Below the pieces are notes generated by a model. That model had not been told where the DNA came from. It did not search any database and saw only the letters and a list, made by a program, of their open reading frames with translations. A DNA stretch of 37,548 nt from a virus (Duplodnaviria; Caudoviricetes), in IMG/VR virus record IMGVR_UViG_3300037634_003268, positions 1-37,548 of that record. The stretch is one strand, 5' to 3'. This document shows, piece after piece, positions 2,395 to 17,236 of the stretch. The position numbers and the translations under genes were made by a program. Positions within the stretch are counted from its first letter, which is position 1. Every line of letters starts with the position of its first letter.

Positions 2395-3258
2395 ATGAGA
2401 ATATTGTTTGTAGGTGTCTTCACAGAAGACAACCGTTCTACTAATGATGGGCAAGCAAGAGGATTAGAACAGAACGGACATGAAGTAATAAGATATAATT
2501 ATAGAATCCGAAAGGACGAACTTGGTTCTCAACAGAGAGATTCTGAAATTATATGTACTGCTGGTTATGGTTTGTGTGACTTAGTTATATTCTCCAAATG
2601 TAACGGAGTCAGTATTGAAGTAATAAGCCAGATAAAAGCAGTTGGTATACCTACTTGCTTGTGGTTTATGGATGCCTACCTTCCTAACCACTGGACAGAA
2701 GAACTCATACTTAAGATGCAGCACTGCACTTATGTATGTTGTGACAAGTACCAAGCCGTTGGTGCTGCGTTAAATTATAATCCACGCACATATCACGTAT
2801 GTGAAGGTTATGATGATGAAATAGACAAACCTTACAACTACAATAGAGATATAGATTGTTCCTTCATTGGTGACCCATATGGAAATAGGGGCGCAATATG
2901 TAGGTTCTACAATATTAACATATTTCAATCCGCATATGGAGAGGAACATGCTAAGGTAGTTAGTAGATCTAAAATCAACCTAAACTTCTGTACAGGGGAC
3001 TGTGCATCAGATAGAGTCTATAAGATTCTTGGTGCAGGTGGACTACTGCTTACAGATGATTGGTATGGTAGATCTTCAGACCTTGAAGATGGCACAGATC
3101 TTGTTATATTTAATAATACATATGAACTTGCTCAGTTGATAAATAAGTATTTGGAAGATGATCATGCTGCACAAATCATAAGAGACAACGGTCACCAGAC
3201 AGTAAAGCAATATACCAGAAAGGAATGGGCAAGGAGGATAATAGAATATGCAAACTAG
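2395..3258 (+). CDS. glycosyltransferase, CgeB-like / GT-B (Glyco_trans_1_2-type C-terminus)
   Basis: MRILFVG N-terminus; SKINLNF...SDRVYKILGAGGLLLTD...IRDNGHQTV...YTRKEWARRI C-terminal pattern. Confidence 0.85.
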   Translation: MRILFVGVFTEDNRSTNDGQARGLEQNGHEVIRYNYRIRKDELGSQQRDSEIICTAGYGLCDLVIFSKCNGVSIEVISQIKAVGIPTCLWFMDAYLPNHWTEELILKMQHCTYVCCDKYQAVGAALNYNPRTYHVCEGYDDEIDKPYNYNRDIDCSFIGDPYGNRGAICRFYNINIFQSAYGEEHAKVVSRSKINLNFCTGDCASDRVYKILGAGGLLLTDDWYGRSSDLEDGTDLVIFNNTYELAQLINKYLEDDHAAQIIRDNGHQTVKQYTRKEWARRIIEYAN

Positions 3259-3937
3259 ATTATATCTTATATTAGCAAATACTAGATCTGGACACCATGG
3301 TATTATTAATTGGATCATGGCACAATTTCCAGGATACATATATCATAAGAATGCGTGGATCTATGATGCTAATCTCGATGAGATGCGATCTGACATGGAG
3401 AGAACTCCAGATGAAAGACATAATAATGGAGAACATAAAGCAGAAATTCGAAACTTTGAAGATTTCGATCTGCATTATTATAAAGACATACGTAGATTGG
3501 TTGAAACATTTAAAGTATGTACAATTATTGTATATAGGGGAGTAAGAAACTGGTTAGCGTCTCAAGTACGTAAGTACTCTATAACAGGAGATTCTGGAGC
3601 TATTAGTGTTAATATTGATGCATATGATCAATTCCTTAAAGAAGTACACGGAGAAACCCATCTTGTTCCAAATAAGCTTTGTATCAGCTTTGATAAGTGG
3701 TTTAGTAACCAGAAGTATAGAGAAGATATTGCAACATTACTTGAATTAGATTTTACTGACAATGGACTTAATGATCTTGGTATTCCTGGAGCTGGAAGCT
3801 CATTCGATGGTTATAAGTTTACAGATAATGCACAACACATGAATGTACTTAATAGACATGAACAAATGAAAGATTATCCCATTTATAATTTCTTTATGAA
3901 GGATGAGAGATTAATGAAGTGGGAAGCTATGGAGTAA
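3248..3937 (+). CDS. sulfotransferase-like (P-loop) protein, paralog 1
   Basis: N-terminal RSGHHGIINW resembles PAPS-binding loop; IIVYR..NWLAS; GSSFDG. Confidence 0.6.
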   Translation: MQTRLYLILANTRSGHHGIINWIMAQFPGYIYHKNAWIYDANLDEMRSDMERTPDERHNNGEHKAEIRNFEDFDLHYYKDIRRLVETFKVCTIIVYRGVRNWLASQVRKYSITGDSGAISVNIDAYDQFLKEVHGETHLVPNKLCISFDKWFSNQKYREDIATLLELDFTDNGLNDLGIPGAGSSFDGYKFTDNAQHMNVLNRHEQMKDYPIYNFFMKDERLMKWEAME

Positions 3938-3939
3938 GA

Positions 3940-4701
3940 ATGTTTAGCATAATAATTGTAACATTTAATAATATAAGATATTTACAACTCTGTATTGATA
4001 GTATAAATAAAAATAGCCATTTCGAAAATCAAATATTTGTACATGTCAATGGCGGAAATGATGGAACTACAGAATGGCTTGAAGAACAAGGAATTCCATT
4101 TACTCATACTGCAGAGAACATAGGACTAACTGCAGCAGCGAATCGTGTAGCTATAAAAGCATTCAACCGTTATGTGTGTCTGATAGATGATGATATGTAT
4201 GTTCTCCCCAATTGGGATAAAGAATTAATTAACTTCAAGAATGAAAATAATCTGAGTAATGAGGATTGGCTCTGCTGCACAGCAATAGAAAGGAATGCTG
4301 GATGTTCGGGATCTCTAAATGGAGATTATGGAGATATAGATACTTTTCATGAAGATGAACTATTAGCCGACTACAGACACATAAAGGCAGTGCCTATGGT
4401 TTGCACTCAACTCACTCCCCTCCTCATAGATCTTGTTACGTGGAAGAAGATAGGTGGCTATGATGAAGACTTTTGGGTCATAGGTGCAGAAGAAGGATTA
4501 GCAATGAGAATGCACAATAATGGATGTCAACATTTCGTCAGTGTACCTAAGAGCTTAGTTTATCATTTTCAATGTATTACATCTGACAAGATGCCTAATA
4601 GACAATTCCATTCTATACGTAGAGAGCAAGTATTTAGTGATAAGTATGGTATGACAACAAAGGATTTTAATGCTATTATAGGAAGAGGAAATAAATGGTA
4701 A
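3940..4701 (+). CDS. glycosyltransferase family 2
   Basis: MFSIIIVTFNN, NGGNDGT, IDDD (DxD), IGGYDEDF, VYH; start reassigned to ATG 3940 behind GGAG. Confidence 0.9.
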   Translation: MFSIIIVTFNNIRYLQLCIDSINKNSHFENQIFVHVNGGNDGTTEWLEEQGIPFTHTAENIGLTAAANRVAIKAFNRYVCLIDDDMYVLPNWDKELINFKNENNLSNEDWLCCTAIERNAGCSGSLNGDYGDIDTFHEDELLADYRHIKAVPMVCTQLTPLLIDLVTWKKIGGYDEDFWVIGAEEGLAMRMHNNGCQHFVSVPKSLVYHFQCITSDKMPNRQFHSIRREQVFSDKYGMTTKDFNAIIGRGNKW

Positions 4702-5438
4702 AGTCGTTTATAGTATATTCTAATAGTAGAAGTGGGCACCATGCAATCATTAATTGGATGGGAAAGCAACTTCCTGGTTATGTTGAACACCATAATAGTT
4801 GCACTAAAGAATTAGAACAAGGAAACTTAGTATCTGATACTGGAAGAATAGAAAAATATAATAATGGTGAAGATAGATATAACATATATAGTTTTGAACA
4901 ATTAGACATGAAACTATTGAGAAAGTTTGATGTTCCATCTATGGTTGAAAGTCCAACCAATATCATAATTATACGAGATATATTGAACTGGGCAGCATCT
5001 CTAACCTTTAAAGTTAAAGATTACAATGTCTTATGGGACCCATATGTAGATAGAGAAGGTAGGATCAGTTCTTCCATGATTAACATCTATAAAGATTTGC
5101 TCATTGAGGCTATAGATCGAACACTATATCCCACGGTAATAGGATACAATAAATGGACCACAGACGAAAACTATAGAAGTAATCTTGCTGGTGAGTTGGG
5201 TATGACATTTACTGATGATGGTTTTGAAGAGATGCCTTCATTCGGAGACGGAAGCAGCTTCTCCTATTTCCAATATGTAAATAAGGCAAGTAGTATGGAT
5301 ACACTTAATAGATGGAAGTATCTACCTGAAGGAGTTATAACAAGAATACTTTCCGATGCTCACCTTTTAGAATTAACCAGAAGCTGTCGTGATCTTATAG
5401 GACCAATTCCATGGATGGAACAAGGAGTACTTACATGA
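4695..5438 (+). CDS. sulfotransferase-like protein, paralog 2
   Basis: RSGHHAIINW, IIIRDILNWAAS, GSSFS; clear paralog of 3248-3937. Confidence 0.6.
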   Translation: MVKSFIVYSNSRSGHHAIINWMGKQLPGYVEHHNSCTKELEQGNLVSDTGRIEKYNNGEDRYNIYSFEQLDMKLLRKFDVPSMVESPTNIIIIRDILNWAASLTFKVKDYNVLWDPYVDREGRISSSMINIYKDLLIEAIDRTLYPTVIGYNKWTTDENYRSNLAGELGMTFTDDGFEEMPSFGDGSSFSYFQYVNKASSMDTLNRWKYLPEGVITRILSDAHLLELTRSCRDLIGPIPWMEQGVLT

Positions 5439-6016
5439 AAGCAATATCCGAACTAGATATACCTTCCTCATATAGACAAAACAAATACTGTAATGTCCTT
5501 GCTGGGATATGTTATACATTAAATCCTGGTAATATAGTTGAGTTTGGAATATTAGAAGGATACTCAACAGATGTATTTCTTAGATCTACTGATGCACAAA
5601 TAGTATCTTACGATTTGTTTGAATCTATTGGAGACTTCCCTGGAAACAGAAGCCAGTTTCATATTATACACGATAGATTTCACGAAGATATAGTTGAAGG
5701 TAGATTAATTTTGAGACCAAAAAGTTTCTATGATGCAGTAGATGATTTCTTGGATAATTCGATAGACTTAATACATATAGATATAGCAAATGATGGAGAT
5801 GTTTATGAGTTTGCTATTAATAATTATATGAGAAAATTAACATCTAATGGAATAATGATTCTTGAAGGAGGATCTCAAGAAAGAGATAATGTAGAATGGA
5901 TGATAAAATATAATAAGAGAAATATAGGCGAAGTAATAAAAAATACTAATGCATTGGTAATAGAATCATTTCCCTCTATTACTATTATGAGGAGAGGATA
6001 TGATACCATTATTTAG
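5435..6016 (+). CDS. class I SAM-dependent methyltransferase (Methyltransf_24-like)
   Basis: IVEFGILEGYST, SYD, IDLIHID, LTSNGIMIL motifs; ATG overlaps upstream TGA. Confidence 0.85.
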   Translation: MKAISELDIPSSYRQNKYCNVLAGICYTLNPGNIVEFGILEGYSTDVFLRSTDAQIVSYDLFESIGDFPGNRSQFHIIHDRFHEDIVEGRLILRPKSFYDAVDDFLDNSIDLIHIDIANDGDVYEFAINNYMRKLTSNGIMILEGGSQERDNVEWMIKYNKRNIGEVIKNTNALVIESFPSITIMRRGYDTII

Positions 6017-7121
6017 AGTATTTATGCATGAAGATGCCGTAGAAGCATCAGTAAAAGTATTGAGATCAGGATATATAGGTCAAGGTCCTGTGGTGGAACA
6101 GTTTGAAAAAGAACTATCTAATTATTTAGATGACAACGTAGTTACCACTAACTCTGCTACTTCCGCTGCACACTTAGCGTTTCATATGACAAAGAACTAC
6201 GATACCCAATATAGAGATGAAGTCCTTTGTACTGCTCTTACATGCACAGCAACTAATTGGCCTGTGCTTGCAAATGGACTAAAAATTAAGTGGGTGGACA
6301 TTGATCCTAATACACTTAATATGGACATAGATGATCTTGCAAGAAAAATAACTAATAAAACTCTAGCAATTAATATAGTTCATTGGGGTGGTTATCCAAT
6401 AGATTATAAGAAGATGTATGAGGCTCTCGATAAAACAGATGATGCAGTTTATAACTATCCTTCTGTAATAGAGGATTGTGCTCATGCCTTTGGTAGTACA
6501 TATGAAGGTTCACCATTATCTAATCAAGGTGGCTACTGTATATACAGTTTCCAAGCAATAAAACACCTTACATGCGGAGATGGTGGTGCTCTTGTACTTC
6601 CACACCTTAGTCATGTAGAAAATGCAAAACTACTCAGATGGTATGGTATAGATAGAAATACTAATAGTAAAGATTTTAGATGCGAAGCAGATATTCGTGA
6701 ATGGGGATTCAAGTTCCACATGAATGACATTAGTGCGTCTATAGGTCTTGCAAATCTTAAACATATTCAAAAAGAAGTTATTGACAAACATAAAGATAAT
6801 GCAGCATATTATTATGAAAAACTACAGGATATAGATGGTATAACTCTTCTTGAAAGAAAAGAAAATAGAGAATCAGCTTATTGGATATTCTCTTTGCTTG
6901 TAGATAGAAAAGCTGATTTCATGAAACATATGGCTGAGTGCAATATAATGGTAAGTCAAGTACATGAAAGAAATGACATACACTCATGTGTATTACAATA
7001 TAAATCAGCACTACCGAATCTAGATGCTACAATAGATAAGGTTATTTCTATTCCAGTGGGTTGGTGGGTAACTAAAGAAGATAGAGAATACATTGTAGAT
7101 TGTATAAAAAAGGGATGGTAA
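6000..7121 (+). CDS. DegT/DnrJ/EryC1/StrS PLP-dependent sugar aminotransferase
   Basis: GPVVEQFE, NSATSA, IEDCAHAFG, SFQAIKHLTCGDGG (catalytic Lys), ISIPV. Confidence 0.95.
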   Translation: MIPLFRVFMHEDAVEASVKVLRSGYIGQGPVVEQFEKELSNYLDDNVVTTNSATSAAHLAFHMTKNYDTQYRDEVLCTALTCTATNWPVLANGLKIKWVDIDPNTLNMDIDDLARKITNKTLAINIVHWGGYPIDYKKMYEALDKTDDAVYNYPSVIEDCAHAFGSTYEGSPLSNQGGYCIYSFQAIKHLTCGDGGALVLPHLSHVENAKLLRWYGIDRNTNSKDFRCEADIREWGFKFHMNDISASIGLANLKHIQKEVIDKHKDNAAYYYEKLQDIDGITLLERKENRESAYWIFSLLVDRKADFMKHMAECNIMVSQVHERNDIHSCVLQYKSALPNLDATIDKVISIPVGWWVTKEDREYIVDCIKKGW

Positions 7122-7859
7122 ATGATAAGTATACTTATTCCCACTTTGGGAAATCTACCATATTTAGATTTATATTGTAGATCTCTGGAAAAACATACAA
7201 CAGTACCATACGAAATAGTTATATGGAACAATGAAGCATCTGAGGATGTTAGAGACTTCTGTAGGTACAACCGCTATAGATACTTTGAATCAGACAATAA
7301 TCTAGGTATAACTAAACCATATAATATAATGGTTGAAGAATGTGCGTATGATATAATCTATTTATCTGACAATGATTTCTATGCACTTCCTGGATGGGAT
7401 GTAATAGCTAAGGAAGCCATAGAAGTGTATTGGAAGAGAGTATGCTTAATAGATCCCAGGATTGAGAAGATGAATAGATCTGTTATAGAAAATTTTGGAA
7501 CAGATCTAGGTTCATTCAGAGAAGCAGAATTAATAATGAAAACAGCTAATGTATCAGTTCCAGATGACGTTCTAGGACCTTATATGCCACCAGTACTCAA
7601 GAAGCAAGACTATATAAGTATTGGTGGGTTCAATGAAGACTTCTTCATTGGAGAACAAGATTTCTTGTGGAGATCTTATACATACTATAATAATGTTGGA
7701 TATACACAATATATAAGTTCTAATAGTTTTATGTATCACTTCGGATCTAAGACACCTAGAAAGTTTCCTGTGGGGGAGAAGAGAAGAGAATATACCTATG
7801 TAACAGAAACATATGGTATTACCCCAATTGAAATGGATAATATTATGGGAATAGTATGA
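7122..7859 (+). CDS. glycosyltransferase family 2
   Basis: MISILIPT, NLGITKPYN, SDND, IGGFNEDF, YHFGSKT. Confidence 0.9.
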   Translation: MISILIPTLGNLPYLDLYCRSLEKHTTVPYEIVIWNNEASEDVRDFCRYNRYRYFESDNNLGITKPYNIMVEECAYDIIYLSDNDFYALPGWDVIAKEAIEVYWKRVCLIDPRIEKMNRSVIENFGTDLGSFREAELIMKTANVSVPDDVLGPYMPPVLKKQDYISIGGFNEDFFIGEQDFLWRSYTYYNNVGYTQYISSNSFMYHFGSKTPRKFPVGEKRREYTYVTETYGITPIEMDNIMGIV

Positions 7860-8278
7860 CCACTATAAATGATGTAGTAAAATTCAAATACGACAGTATG
7901 GCAGATGATAAAATGCTAATTCCGTTAGAATATCCTAAGACAATGCCATTTCCTATAAAACGAATATTCTACGTTCATAGTATACCCGATACTGACAACA
8001 GAGGCAATCATGCTAATATAACATCGGAACAAATAATTATTTGTTTGACTGGTAGAATAAATGTTACTTGTCGCGATGGTATATCTATGCAGCAATGGAG
8101 TCTATGGCAGAATGATGCCATATATGTACCTAAAATGATATGGGATGAAGAGTCATTCTGTACCCCTGAAACTATTATGTTATCGCTAAATAGTACCATC
8201 TATAGTCGCGATTACTATATAGAAGATTTTGATATATTTAAACAACTTAAAAGAACAGACAAAAGTTGGGGATCATAG
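7856..8278 (+). CDS. FdtA/QdtA (WxcM-like) cupin, sugar 3,4-ketoisomerase family
   Basis: PFPIKRIFYV, RGNHAN, QIIICLTG, YVPKMIW, YIEDFDIF. Confidence 0.85.
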   Translation: MTTINDVVKFKYDSMADDKMLIPLEYPKTMPFPIKRIFYVHSIPDTDNRGNHANITSEQIIICLTGRINVTCRDGISMQQWSLWQNDAIYVPKMIWDEESFCTPETIMLSLNSTIYSRDYYIEDFDIFKQLKRTDKSWGS

Positions 8279-9964: not shown

Positions 9965-10036
9965 GGACCTATCTTATAGTGGTTATTATACCTGTCTGTC
10001 TAACAGGAGACGAGGGTTCGATTCCCTCTAGGTTCG
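9965..10036 (+). tRNA. tRNA-Asp(GTC)
   Basis: GGACCTA/TAGGTTC, G73; CCTGT-CTGTCTA-ACAGG; GAGGG-TTCGATT-CCCTC. Confidence 0.9.
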
Positions 10037-10037
10037 T

Positions 10038-10107
10038 GGAACGAAAAGGGTAGCTCCCCTTCCAGCACCGTGATTGCTGGATAGTTCCTTAATCCTATCA
10101 CGGAGGT
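10038..10107 (+). ncRNA. HNH-leader RNA motif copy B
   Basis: P1 GGAAC/GTTCC, P2 GGG-TAGCT-CCC, P3 TCCAGCA/TGCTGGA, loop CCGTGAT pairs with ATCACGG (10097-10103) overlapping SD GGAGGT. Confidence 0.85.
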
Positions 10108-10111
10108 AGAT

Positions 10112-11054: not shown

Positions 11055-11088
11055 AGTGAAGTAGCTTAAGGGTAAAGCGCGACTCTCA
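11055..11088 (+). tRNA. 5' half of split tRNA(CAT) (Met or Ile2)
   Basis: AGTGAAG-TA-GCTT-AAGGGTA-AAGC-G-CGACT-CT-CA; pairs with 3' half at 11778-11815. Confidence 0.9.
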
Positions 11089-11093
11089 AATAT

Positions 11094-11159
11094 AGGACGA
11101 AAAGGGTAGCTCCCCTGTCAACTCTATACAGTTGACTAGTCCTTTTACTCGTATAGGAG
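11094..11159 (+). ncRNA. HNH-leader RNA motif copy C
   Basis: P1 AGGAC/GTCCT, P2 GGG-TAGCT-CCC, P3 GTCAACT/AGTTGAC, loop CTATAC pairs with GTATAG (11151-11156) overlapping SD GGAG. Confidence 0.85.
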
Positions 11160-11167
11160 TGATAAAC

Positions 11168-11704
11168 ATGAAACAGTGCGAATATTGTAGTGAAATTTTA
11201 ATACAAAGAGATACAGAATCAAATTACTATTTTAGAAAAAGAAGATTCTGTAATAAAAGTTGTTCTAATTTTCATTGCAAGAATGGTTTACATAATAAAA
11301 AATTATTAAAAACTAAAACATGCATTAGATGTAATACAGAATTTAACTTAGAAAGAAATGAACAAGGAAAATTCAAAGAAAGAAAAGTTTGTAATGATTG
11401 TCCGACTAACGCTCCAGGTATGGCAAACTATATGACTAAAGGGCAATTATTTGCTAGTAGATCATGGCAAGCAGCAAGAAGCACTATAGTTGATCATGCT
11501 AGAAGATTATATTTTAGTTGTAATGATAATCAGTGCAATGTGAATGAATGCACATACACTAATCATATAGAAGTTGCACACAAGAAAGCAGTGAAGGATT
11601 TTTCTGATGATACGCCAATATTAGATATCAACCATATAGATAACCTTATTGGTCTTTGTCCGAATCATCATTGGGACTACGATAACAGATTATTAAATCT
11701 TTAA
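11168..11704 (+). CDS. HNH endonuclease with N-terminal Zn-finger repeats (HNH-2), paralog of HNH-1
   Basis: CEYC, FCNKSC, CIRC/CNDC; EVAHKK...NHIDNLIGLCPNHHWDYD; ATG 11168 follows GGAG. Confidence 0.9.
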   Translation: MKQCEYCSEILIQRDTESNYYFRKRRFCNKSCSNFHCKNGLHNKKLLKTKTCIRCNTEFNLERNEQGKFKERKVCNDCPTNAPGMANYMTKGQLFASRSWQAARSTIVDHARRLYFSCNDNQCNVNECTYTNHIEVAHKKAVKDFSDDTPILDINHIDNLIGLCPNHHWDYDNRLLNL

Positions 11705-11777
11705 AGCGAAGTGGGGTAGCGGAAACTCGCGAAGATTCATAAACTTCGAGACATCGGTTCGAATCCGATCTTCGCCA
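11705..11777 (+). tRNA. nested intact tRNA(CAT), A1:C72 mismatch (initiator-like)
   Basis: AGCGAAG/CTTCGCC; GGGT/ACTC; CGAAG-ATTCATAAA-CTTCG; ATCGG-TTCGAAT-CCGAT; starts on the base after the HNH stop. Confidence 0.85.
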
Positions 11778-11815
11778 TAAGGTCGTGAGTGTGGGTTCGA
11801 GTCCCACCTTCACTA
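11778..11815 (+). tRNA. 3' half of split tRNA(CAT)
   Basis: TAA-GGTCG-TGAGT-GTGGG-TTCGAGT-CCCAC-CTTCACT-A; CTTCACT is the exact complement of AGTGAAG at 11055. Confidence 0.9.
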
Positions 11816-15160: not shown

Positions 15161-15535
15161 ATGAATCAAGCAACAAGAGACACAGTAGATGCATTCGTTA
15201 CCTCTGTATATGATGGCATCCAGACCGCACAAGATACATACAAATTAAATAATAGAGATGATAATAGATATGAGAATGGTAGATTCTTTAATGAACCATC
15301 TACTCATAATGTATATCCTGCAGATGGCGTACTAAAGAATAAAAATAATGCATGGACAGAGAAGACTCTTCCTACTACAATGCCTTGCTCATTACGAACT
15401 AGCGTATTAGAGTACAGAGATCAGATGGGTTGGTTACTCATTATAGATTATTTAGATGATGGAATTCATTATCAGAAAATAATAGATACCCTTGATGTAT
15501 TGAGTCAAGATTGGTTAGAGGTACCCTCAACCTAA
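15161..15535 (+). CDS. hypothetical protein
   Basis: AGGTG RBS; follows LamG gene. Confidence 0.75.
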   Translation: MNQATRDTVDAFVTSVYDGIQTAQDTYKLNNRDDNRYENGRFFNEPSTHNVYPADGVLKNKNNAWTEKTLPTTMPCSLRTSVLEYRDQMGWLLIIDYLDDGIHYQKIIDTLDVLSQDWLEVPST

Positions 15536-15560
15536 AAATGGGGCTAGTGCTTTTATGTAG

Positions 15561-15634
15561 GGAAGTATGACAGAGAGGTAATGTGCCCGGAGGCTTGGGT
15601 TAAACCAACGTTGGTTCGATTCCAATTGCTTCCG
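15561..15634 (+). pseudogene. tRNA-Ser-like gene lacking a canonical anticodon loop
   Basis: GGAAGTA/TGCTTCC, G73, D arm ACA/TGT and T arm GTTGG-TTCGATT-CCAAT intact; centre GCCCGGAGGCTTGGGTTAAACCAAC. Confidence 0.75.
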
Positions 15635-15644
15635 TTGAGGATTT

Positions 15645-15905
15645 ATGAGAAAGAAATTAATTATGAGTTTAGATGCACTTTGTGATTTACTAACTAGTGT
15701 ACATAAAGTACCGGACGATTGTATACTTAATAAAGATATAGTAATTAAACATGTGGAAATGATTCATGAACAAGATGCATTAGTAATACATGTTGATACA
15801 TTAGATGAAATAAAGACTCCAGAATTAGAAATAGCGCAAATGGAAGAATTATATACTGAACAAGATTTAAAAGATCAAAAAGTTGTTGTAATATCAATGA
15901 ACTAA
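15645..15905 (+). CDS. hypothetical protein
   Basis: GAGGA RBS; 86 aa. Confidence 0.7.
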   Translation: MRKKLIMSLDALCDLLTSVHKVPDDCILNKDIVIKHVEMIHEQDALVIHVDTLDEIKTPELEIAQMEELYTEQDLKDQKVVVISMN

Positions 15906-15910
15906 AACTT

Positions 15911-15945
15911 GGAAGCGACCCGGAAGGATGAGGACACAGTCTTGA
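15911..15945 (+). pseudogene. 5' half of tRNA-Ser(TGA)
   Basis: GGAAGCG...ACAGT-CTTGA, matches GGAAGTA...GCAGT-CTTGA of the intact tRNA-Ser at 16397. Confidence 0.7.
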
Positions 15946-16397
15946 TAAAGTATACAGAAGAACAACTTAGGTGTATTATCCCCAGATCTTATACTTGGGC
16001 AAGTGTCTGTAGGGAATTAGGAATACCAACGGCTGGAGGAAGTCAAGCTCATTTGAAATCTAGAGCTGAAAAATATGGTATAGATTATTCTCACTTCAAG
16101 AGTAGAGCATGGAACAAAGGTTTAAAGGTACCTCATAGAAATATTGAAGACATATTAGTAAAAAGGACAAAAGGTAATAGACAAAGTGCTCATATGTTGA
16201 GAAGAGCATTAGATGAATTCGGAATATCATATAATTGTTTCGAATGTGGTGCATCTGAATGGAGAGGCAAACCATTACGATTAGAAGTAGATCATATTAA
16301 CGGAAATAAATTAGATGATAGAATAGAGAATCTAAGATATATGTGTCCTAATTGTCACTCTCAGACAGACACATATAAGAACAAAGTCAGAAATTAG
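15942..16397 (+). CDS. HNH endonuclease (HNH-3), different subfamily with N-terminal HTH-like region
   Basis: CFECGASEWRGKPLRLEVDHINGNKLDDRIENLRYMCPNCHSQT; probable TTG start 7 nt after GAGGA. Confidence 0.9.
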   Translation: MIKYTEEQLRCIIPRSYTWASVCRELGIPTAGGSQAHLKSRAEKYGIDYSHFKSRAWNKGLKVPHRNIEDILVKRTKGNRQSAHMLRRALDEFGISYNCFECGASEWRGKPLRLEVDHINGNKLDDRIENLRYMCPNCHSQTDTYKNKVRN

Positions 16398-16479
16398 GAA
16401 GTACGGTCATTGGCGCGACAAGCAGTCTTGAAAACTGTCACTCCGTAAGGAGCTGTTGGTTCAATTCCAGCTACTTCCG
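16397..16479 (+). tRNA. tRNA-Ser(TGA)
   Basis: GGAAGTA/TACTTCC, G73; GCAGT-CTTGAAA-ACTGT; long variable arm CTCC-GTAA-GGAG; first G is the last base of HNH-3 TAG. Confidence 0.92.
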
Positions 16480-16549
16480 TATTCCCTAGCAACATTGGGA
16501 ACATATACCCCGCGATCGTACAGCAGAAGTATACTAAATCGGGGTATCC

Positions 16550-16620
16550 GCAGGGATGGGCAAATGGTAAGTCGCGGGATTGCAACCCCCGAGTTCCCTG
16601 TTCGACTCAGGGTCTCTGCT
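16550..16620 (+). tRNA. tRNA-Cys(GCA)
   Basis: GCAGGGA/TCTCTGC, U73; CGGGA-TTGCAAC-CCCCG; CCCTG-TTCGACT-CAGGG. Confidence 0.9.
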
Positions 16621-16625
16621 TATAT

Positions 16626-16697
16626 GGTGAGTATAGTAGATTGGTAACACGCGAAGCTGTGTACTTCGAGAAACGGGTTCGATTCCCGTTTTTCACC
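16626..16697 (+). tRNA. tRNA-His(GTG), canonical G-1:C73
   Basis: GGTGAGTA/TTTTCACC; CGAAG-CTGTGTA-CTTCG; ACGGG-TTCGATT-CCCGT. Confidence 0.9.
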
Positions 16698-16720
16698 CTG
16701 CACTCCAACTAAGGTGATCT

Positions 16721-17236
16721 ATGCTTGATAAAATAAACAACTATGGAAAAGTCATATCTGGACTACAAGGCATCAAAAAATGGGTTTCAGGTCATACTTC
16801 TAAGATGAACTTAGGAGTTATGGGTAGAGCGGGAGCGGGAGCTGTTGTTTCTTCTGCTATGGGATTTGGTCCACTACCCGGTGCAGTAGCTGGAGCAGCA
16901 TCTCCAATTATTGGAAGAGGAATAAGGGGCATGGGTAGTCAATTGAAGAAAGGATTCACTGCATCTCCAGTAAGAACCGGAGCTGCCCTTGGATTAACAT
17001 TAGGTGTTATGGGTGCAGGTATGGCACTAGGAACTCGTACCCTTAATCAATTACGTACTAACATGAGACCAACTAGTGGAGTAGGACCATCAATGACATC
17101 TAGTGGATATGTTAGTTGGACTAATGGTAGAAGCGAAGGAATGAGTGCAGAACATCTTGGTGCATCTGGTGGGCTATCACTAGCATTACATAGGACTAGA
17201 CACAGACTTAACTTACACAGGACTGGTTTCTCTTGA
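16721..17236 (+). CDS. Gly/Ala-rich protein, possible internal virion/ejection protein
   Basis: AAGGTG RBS; glycine-zipper-like hydrophobic segments. Confidence 0.65.
   Translation: MLDKINNYGKVISGLQGIKKWVSGHTSKMNLGVMGRAGAGAVVSSAMGFGPLPGAVAGAASPIIGRGIRGMGSQLKKGFTASPVRTGAALGLTLGVMGAGMALGTRTLNQLRTNMRPTSGVGPSMTSSGYVSWTNGRSEGMSAEHLGASGGLSLALHRTRHRLNLHRTGFS

Follow-up and report, generated by a model that had tools for sequence, protein, structure and literature searches.

A nuclease gene with a spare tRNA, lodged behind the broken 5' half of a tRNA-Ser(TGA) gene, is interpreted here as a mobile homing cassette that overwrote the resident tRNA-Ser(TGA) gene of a tailed phage and would spread without splicing, a reading to which we give a probability of roughly 0.65. 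The locus lies in IMG/VR record IMGVR_UViG_3300037634_003268 (Duplodnaviria; Caudoviricetes), in the stretch of 37,548 nucleotides analysed here in full and referred to as the window. The layout itself, its recurrence in a subclade of related nucleases, both halves of the resident gene at one related locus (L275) and a series of filled and empty sites at tRNA-Leu(TAG) were seen directly.

The phage stretch and the integrity of the locus

A large tailed phage is the origin of the window, a 37.5-kb fragment in which a profile scan of the proteins identified terminase, portal-like and capsid genes. No tyrosine integrase was found among the 34 window proteins scanned, from a record that is about 18% complete. 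Half or more of the stretch was present in runs of six marine metagenomes, of which two may be the source of the sequence. Contigs from two other samples (X3 and X4) crossed both the junction between the half-tRNA and the HNH gene and that between the HNH gene and the intact tRNA, with no differences, and an assembly artefact at this locus could therefore be ruled out.

The window contains at least 16 tRNA-like genes. One of them (9,965 to 10,036, plus strand) was recognized by Rfam (54.3 bits) but missed by ARAGORN, and was assigned to Asp(GTC) by eye. An odd tRNA-like gene at 15,561 to 15,634 (plus strand) scored 37.5 bits with Infernal but was not called by ARAGORN at default settings; relaxed ARAGORN settings, applied to identical contigs, gave a two-letter 'GG' anticodon, and this gene is possibly a pseudogene or a frameshift-type tRNA. 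Two hairpins (16,482 to 16,546, plus strand; z −1.9) between tRNA-Ser and tRNA-Cys do not correspond to a Ser 3' half and are possibly a processing signal or a decayed tRNA. Elsewhere in the window, glycosyltransferases, a methyltransferase, a DegT aminotransferase and an FdtA-like gene are clustered (2,395 to 8,278, plus strand), which suggests a sugar modification of the phage DNA or surface.

The broken tRNA-Ser(TGA) 5' half

The orphan 5' half, hereafter the stub, extends from 15,911 to 15,945 on the plus strand and comprises an acceptor strand, a D arm and an anticodon-stem strand, ending at the anticodon. We read it as the remains of the resident tRNA gene. In a comparison of both strands with 44 foreign Ser(TGA) 5' halves, none from its own phage, the stub was the top-scoring position of the whole window (19, with the runner-up at 13), and a score of 16 was reached by none of 400,000 simulated positions. 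It is identical to the Ser(TGA) half of locus L243 at 27 of 35 positions. The sequence-only reading had placed a tRNA-Ser half ending at the anticodon at this site, and its alignment to Ser tRNAs beyond chance is thus confirmed. A blastn search of the stub against 50,697 phage records gave seven matches, two of which covered all 35 nt at 29/35 identity (E 0.1); one of these two is an unannotated intact tRNA-Ser(TGA) from Streptomyces phage GiJojo (L304, 300 to 386), which has the same type of D arm as the stub, as do the Ser(TGA) genes of L243 and L272.

The stub is detectable by nearest-neighbour scoring only, generic profiles having failed: Rfam gave no match to it in the region 15,850 to 15,946, a mixed Ser HMM reached 3.6 bits, and pooled HMMs did not recover it at 8 bits. 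Folding over the stub gave nothing notable (z −0.14). The exact complement of the stub acceptor strand is absent from the plus strand of the window, and thus, as had been noted earlier, no orphan 3' half is visible.

Searches of viral contigs for an empty allele, with exact and degenerate stub patterns, gave no match. The terminase search for relatives identified three loci, at 33–34% identity, none with tRNAs, and no joint skipping HNH-3 was found in the contigs, which drop rare variants, of 8 of 19 metagenome runs. Since no empty allele was found there, the overwriting was not seen at the HNH-3 site itself.

The HNH-3 gene and its product

The nuclease gene, HNH-3 (15,942 to 16,397, plus strand; 151 aa), belongs to a frame that is open from 15,909 and closes with a TAG stop at 16,395 to 16,397. 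Its likely start is a TTG codon in the anticodon loop of the stub, corresponding to the residue at which its homologues also begin. A putative ribosome-binding site, GAGGA, was predicted from the sequence in the stub D arm (15,930 to 15,934, plus strand), 7 nt upstream of this start. A promoter scan of 15,400 to 16,800 gave seven sites, with 4.6 expected, none of them just 5' of the HNH-3 start.

HNH-3 is a free-standing gene, with no spacer on either side and located outside any intron or intein. An intron origin, with the HNH housed by a self-splicing intron whose removal would join the stub to a 3' exon, has a precedent of sorts, as group I introns of tRNA-Leu(UAA) may house some members of the family (an Rfam group I match overlaps the HNH at L178, and there only, among 10 loci with orphan tRNA-Leu halves that were scanned). 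However, the HNH-3 reading frame starts in the stub and ends on the first base of the tRNA, so there is no room for a ribozyme core, and no group I intron was matched in the window. We therefore find this explanation hardly credible.

The protein has a helical N-terminal part, two CxxC pairs and an HNH motif. Pfam HNH_3 and HNH were above the cut-off, as were only HNH families, a GIY-YIG domain being absent, and a full-length profile match was obtained with PHROG 10822 (E 5.5e-53, residues 3–148). Residues D117, H118, N130, H139, C99, C102, C135 and C138 are invariant in 15/15 aligned proteins, and the predicted catalytic and zinc residues are intact. With the structure model (pLDDT 87), no match was found at E ≤ 0.001; the best values were 0.03–0.1, with no close solved structure. 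The HNH-type structure matches, weak as they are, all correspond to DNA nucleases. This argues against the possibility that the HNH is an anticodon RNase killing a competing tRNA-Ser, with the spare tRNA as an immunity factor. Such a function would be in keeping with the known arms race over tRNAs and otherwise draws on the layout only; however, the stub and the spare have the same anticodon loop, and alleles that are filled or empty at the DNA level, described below, would be left unexplained. We consider it very improbable.

The window encodes two further HNH proteins, HNH-1 and HNH-2, which are 32% identical to each other (E 2e-26) and from which HNH-3 had been set apart as another subfamily. 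The distinction holds for HNH-2, to which HNH-3 is unrelated outside the motif (E 0.049); HNH-1 and HNH-3 differ in their best PHROG family. HNH-3 is not preceded by the leader motif that HNH-1 and HNH-2 have in common, in agreement with the earlier reading. This leader is structured (about 10,041 to 10,110 and 11,097 to 11,170, plus strand) and has no Rfam match. The end of HNH-1 resembles a tRNA 3' half. Inspection by eye of the HNH-2 region (plus strand) revealed a Met(CAT) 5' half (11,055 to 11,088), the leader, the HNH, an intact tRNA-Met (11,705 to 11,777) and a matching 3' half (11,778 to 11,815), an arrangement nested as in L275.

The intact downstream tRNA-Ser(TGA)

The intact tRNA-Ser(TGA), with a long variable arm, was identified at 16,397 to 16,479 (plus strand) by ARAGORN and Infernal (31.1 bits, above the cut-off). 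It does begin, as previously stated, on the G of the HNH-3 stop codon. The stub and this tRNA have their first 5 and last 9 nt in common, the latter ending in the anticodon, and only 3 of the 21 positions between, in the D arm. The D arms are thus unrelated, which rules out a duplication of tRNA-Ser, and the downstream gene is read as a different allele, probably a replacement for the resident gene.

Base pairing within these elements bears on a further explanation, following the logic of integrative elements, in which the cassette would bring no more of a tRNA than its 5' half, the apparently intact tRNA being a chimera of this half with the resident 3' half. The anticodon strand of the stub pairs at 5/5 positions with the downstream 3' strand, versus 4 plus one G-U for the strand of the tRNA itself, and at L279 the stub acceptor pairs at 7/7, versus 6 plus a G-U. 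However, in the window, the acceptor of the intact tRNA forms 7/7 pairs with its own 5' strand, whereas pairing with the stub gives 5 plus a G-U and a mismatch; when the downstream 3' half was joined to the stub, ARAGORN made no call. The spare tRNA is, moreover, wholly foreign in L275, L288 and the coliphages. A chimeric origin is therefore improbable.

Relatives of HNH-3

The alignment-based scans for viral homologues covered 8/64 and 18/64 parts, and the homologue sets are samples. Among the 135 full-length PHROG 10822 homologues listed without a downstream Ser(TGA), 99 have a tRNA no more than 150 nt away, and in 48 the gene directly adjoins a downstream tRNA, which is a Leu tRNA in 29 cases; the family is therefore tRNA-bound but not Ser-bound. 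The wider family is found mostly beside Leu tRNAs without stubs, and most members lie between whole tRNAs. By contrast, the subclade around HNH-3 is Ser-bound. In a check based on proteins only, all four subclade proteins with a read-through tail of at least 12 aa had translated Ser(TGA) as their best match, above the shuffled maximum, versus 0/24 for the other homologues. The proposed association of HNH-3 homologues with tRNA-Ser thus holds for the subclade and fails for the family as a whole.

Pattern scans for an HNH followed by Ser(TGA), in which the stub was not part of the pattern, yielded 24 distinct loci, including that of the HNH-3 phage. Pattern matches without an HNH homologue were dropped; they made up 14 of 21 in the viral data, 11 of 44 in the metagenomes and 5 of 6 in the genomes. 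The one genome locus left, L299, has no stub by eye. These 24 loci were compared with 165 others, after the removal of L294, a duplicate of the HNH-3 phage, and the addition by hand of L288, which has short upstream DNA; the Ser tRNA of L279, missed by ARAGORN, was assigned by hand, and partial matches or those with less than 120 nt upstream were skipped. A Ser stub score of at least 14 was reached by 4 of the 24 loci, one of them the HNH-3 phage, versus 1 of the 165 others (L001). The stubs of L275 and L288 were judged by eye, their scores (9 and 5) being below the threshold, and 18 of the 24 loci have no stub. Among full-length homologues, stubs were present in four of the five others with at least 40% identity (two by eye), versus 1 of 18 in the rest.

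At L001, whose HNH is 59–60% identical to HNH-3, the stub ends at the same base, and what follows the HNH looks like a decayed Ser gene. At L275, the spare tRNA is followed by the 3' half of the resident gene, and ARAGORN called a Ser(TGA) when this was rejoined to the 5' half; at the sequence level, L275 is a clean insertion of the HNH and the spare tRNA into the anticodon loop. Of the seven Ser stubs, four have a clean end in the anticodon loop (five if L286, which is ambiguous, is included) and two end after the D arm. In L001 and L286, a −35 box was predicted to be formed from the anticodon letters. The types of stub differ among related HNHs, as would be expected if the stubs come from the recipients, and L117 and L123 have a Leu(TAA) version of the layout of stub, HNH and replacement tRNA. 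In trees inferred by a quick method, with SH-aLRT as the only measure of support, the core clade had a value of 96 and the wider clade a value of 90; the stub-bearing HNHs of L288 and L267 were found outside this wider clade.

Several other arrangements were observed in the family. At L003 (about 2,375 to 2,996), a homologue with 39% identity splits a tRNA-Met(CAT) in the anticodon loop, the 3' half following directly at the HNH stop; this locus has no intron core, no spare tRNA was called, and a hairpin lies over the ribosome site. Orphan tRNA-Leu 5' halves precede the family HNHs at L102, L108, L117, L123, L127, L134, L137, L141, L143, L178, L182 and L200, and end at a position that we take to be typical of Leu(UAA) group I introns. 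GOLLD RNA and tmRNA genes were found near family HNHs at L178 (3,044 to 3,336), L182 (577 to 949) and L127 (306 to 843).

A filled and empty series at tRNA-Leu(TAG) in cultured coliphages

A homologue from the same family, 48% identical to HNH-3, is present in the genera Felixounavirus, Mooglevirus and Suspvirus (Ounavirinae, Felix O1-like), in which it is present in some relatives and absent from others at one site. The flanks are common to all 10 Ounavirinae loci studied. Two of them have only allele A of tRNA-Leu(TAG) (phiWec174 and FO1a); four, those of Maleficent, mistaenkt (MN850587), SP22 and ECML-1, have, in the same flank, a 10–11 nt 5' stub of A followed by the HNH and by allele B, which is unrelated to A; and four have only allele B (wV8, heid, BPS17W1 and Sf16). 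The stub corresponds to the first 10–11 nt of A and, in Maleficent, holds the annotated ribosome site. A short direct repeat brackets the stub and the HNH. Across the collection, 162 records have allele A and 90 have allele B; the complete unit of HNH plus B occurs in 10, each of the three being counted separately. The simplest order of events would be from A to the stub-HNH-B form and then to B alone, and one such cycle would thus be readable in these phages. Among Otagoviruses, too, the Leu(TAG) allele differs between phages that have the HNH and those that lack it, and no stub is visible there. As the coliphages of this series grow on E. coli K-12, the cut site and homing are directly testable.

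Proposed mechanism

The broken gene could instead be a passive scar: an ordinary free-standing HNH of tRNA arrays, cutting elsewhere as SegB does, or immobile, would have been joined to a stub left when two Ser genes recombined, in a single event, at the anticodon arm common to both, and kept for its start codon, ribosome site or −35 box. The identity of stub and spare over the 9 nt ending in the anticodon is compatible with such an event, the break provides expression signals in the window, L001, L286 and Maleficent, the 99 homologues counted above are merely close to a tRNA, and free-standing enzymes often cut far from their own gene (PMC2988022, accessible sections). However, the isotype of the stub repeatedly matches that of the downstream tRNA, with different types of stub (Ser, Leu-TAA and Leu-TAG), and the insertion at L275 lies inside the anticodon loop. 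We therefore regard a passive scar as unlikely.

According to the homing reading, which we prefer, the HNH would nick or cut the resident-type tRNA gene on a cassette-free genome during mixed infection. Repair from the cassette-bearing genome would then copy in the HNH and the spare tRNA, removing the 3' part of the resident gene. The spare tRNA would keep the codon read and would itself escape cutting, its D arm and flanks being different, and the stub would survive as the left flank and as an expression signal. Later loss of the HNH would leave a swapped tRNA allele. That the nuclease cleaves, that the spare is immune and that inheritance is biased are all inferred by analogy, from the HNH nuclease family and the precedents of SegB and MobE.

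Cutting at the anticodon itself is a tentative element of this scheme, and we find it rather doubtful. The end point of the stub may have been selected for expression, since the anticodon letters provide the start codon of HNH-3 and the −35 box in L001 and L286. Furthermore, the anticodon alone cannot spare the replacement, since the stub and the replacement have the same 9 nt ending in it. The HNH-3 junction may also have arisen when the HNH later lost its own leader by a deletion at the 3-nt overlap of the anticodon and the first codons of the HNH (compare L279). The sequence-only reading had proposed an anticodon-targeting nuclease with a replacement isoacceptor; the recurrent cassette of a nuclease and a same-anticodon tRNA stands, but the targeting is conjectural, since the stub ends vary and the coliphage stub has a length of 11 nt.

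The layout of that reading, an HNH gene between a half-tRNA and a full tRNA with the same anticodon, recurs in the Ser(TGA) subclade, in the Leu(TAA) loci L117 and L123, and in the coliphages with filled and empty Leu(TAG) sites. A broader proposal, to which we would give slightly less than an even chance, is that the PHROG 10822 HNHs constitute a widespread class of splicing-free homing elements, located in their target tRNA gene with an immune isoacceptor, using the broken half as a promoter or start, leaving a swapped allele on decay, and acting as one of the principal drivers by which tRNA alleles are replaced in phage arrays.

Homing elements in needed genes normally require an intron or an intein. 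If the homing reading is correct, an element that carries a spare tRNA could enter a needed gene without splicing. It would also explain the unrelated tRNA alleles with the same anticodon that occur at one position in close phage relatives, and would bear on the variation of phage tRNA sets and the spread of alleles resisting host tRNases. The series of filled, empty and nuclease-lost sites in cultured phages growing on E. coli K-12 is new here.

Comparison with known systems

HNH genes have been associated with tRNA arrays (PMC5966550, PMC8421152), and the first of these papers cites Pope et al. 2014 for adjacent HNHs being implicated in the diversity of tRNA repertoires. The accessible sections of both papers give no anatomy of a stub plus a replacement, unlike the HNH-3 locus. 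No description of stub-HNH-replacement cassettes was found in the accessible literature, although Pope et al. 2014 may overlap with the present layout.

SegB of T4/T6 is, like HNH-3, a free-standing nuclease gene among tRNA genes. According to the accessible parts of PMC2330249 and PMC13096335, it is a GIY-YIG homing endonuclease of the tRNA cluster that cleaves the DNA of tRNA genes and thereby promotes inheritance of this region. However, it belongs to another nuclease family, recognizes a T-arm motif of many tRNA genes and, as described there, leaves no tRNA gene broken and brings no spare with the same anticodon. Intronless homing by MobE of T4 is also similar, as it involves an HNH outside an intron, often with expression signals borrowed from its neighbours, but genes of the MobE type are intergenic and their enzymes cut at distant sites (PMC2988022, in its accessible sections), whereas HNH-3 sits in the broken target gene itself. 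In tRNA-dependent lysogeny, as set out in the available portions of PMC10865867, a tRNA gene is likewise broken without being rebuilt and an isotype-matched tRNA is supplied. That system uses a tyrosine integrase on the host chromosome, whereas the present case involves a 0.57-kb nuclease cassette on the phage's own array, with no integrase and with a same-isotype Ser(TGA) beside the break. By analogy with these systems, the cassette would work like a free-standing homing endonuclease combined with the break-and-supply logic of tRNA-dependent lysogeny, and would be neither a SegB system nor an integrase-based one.
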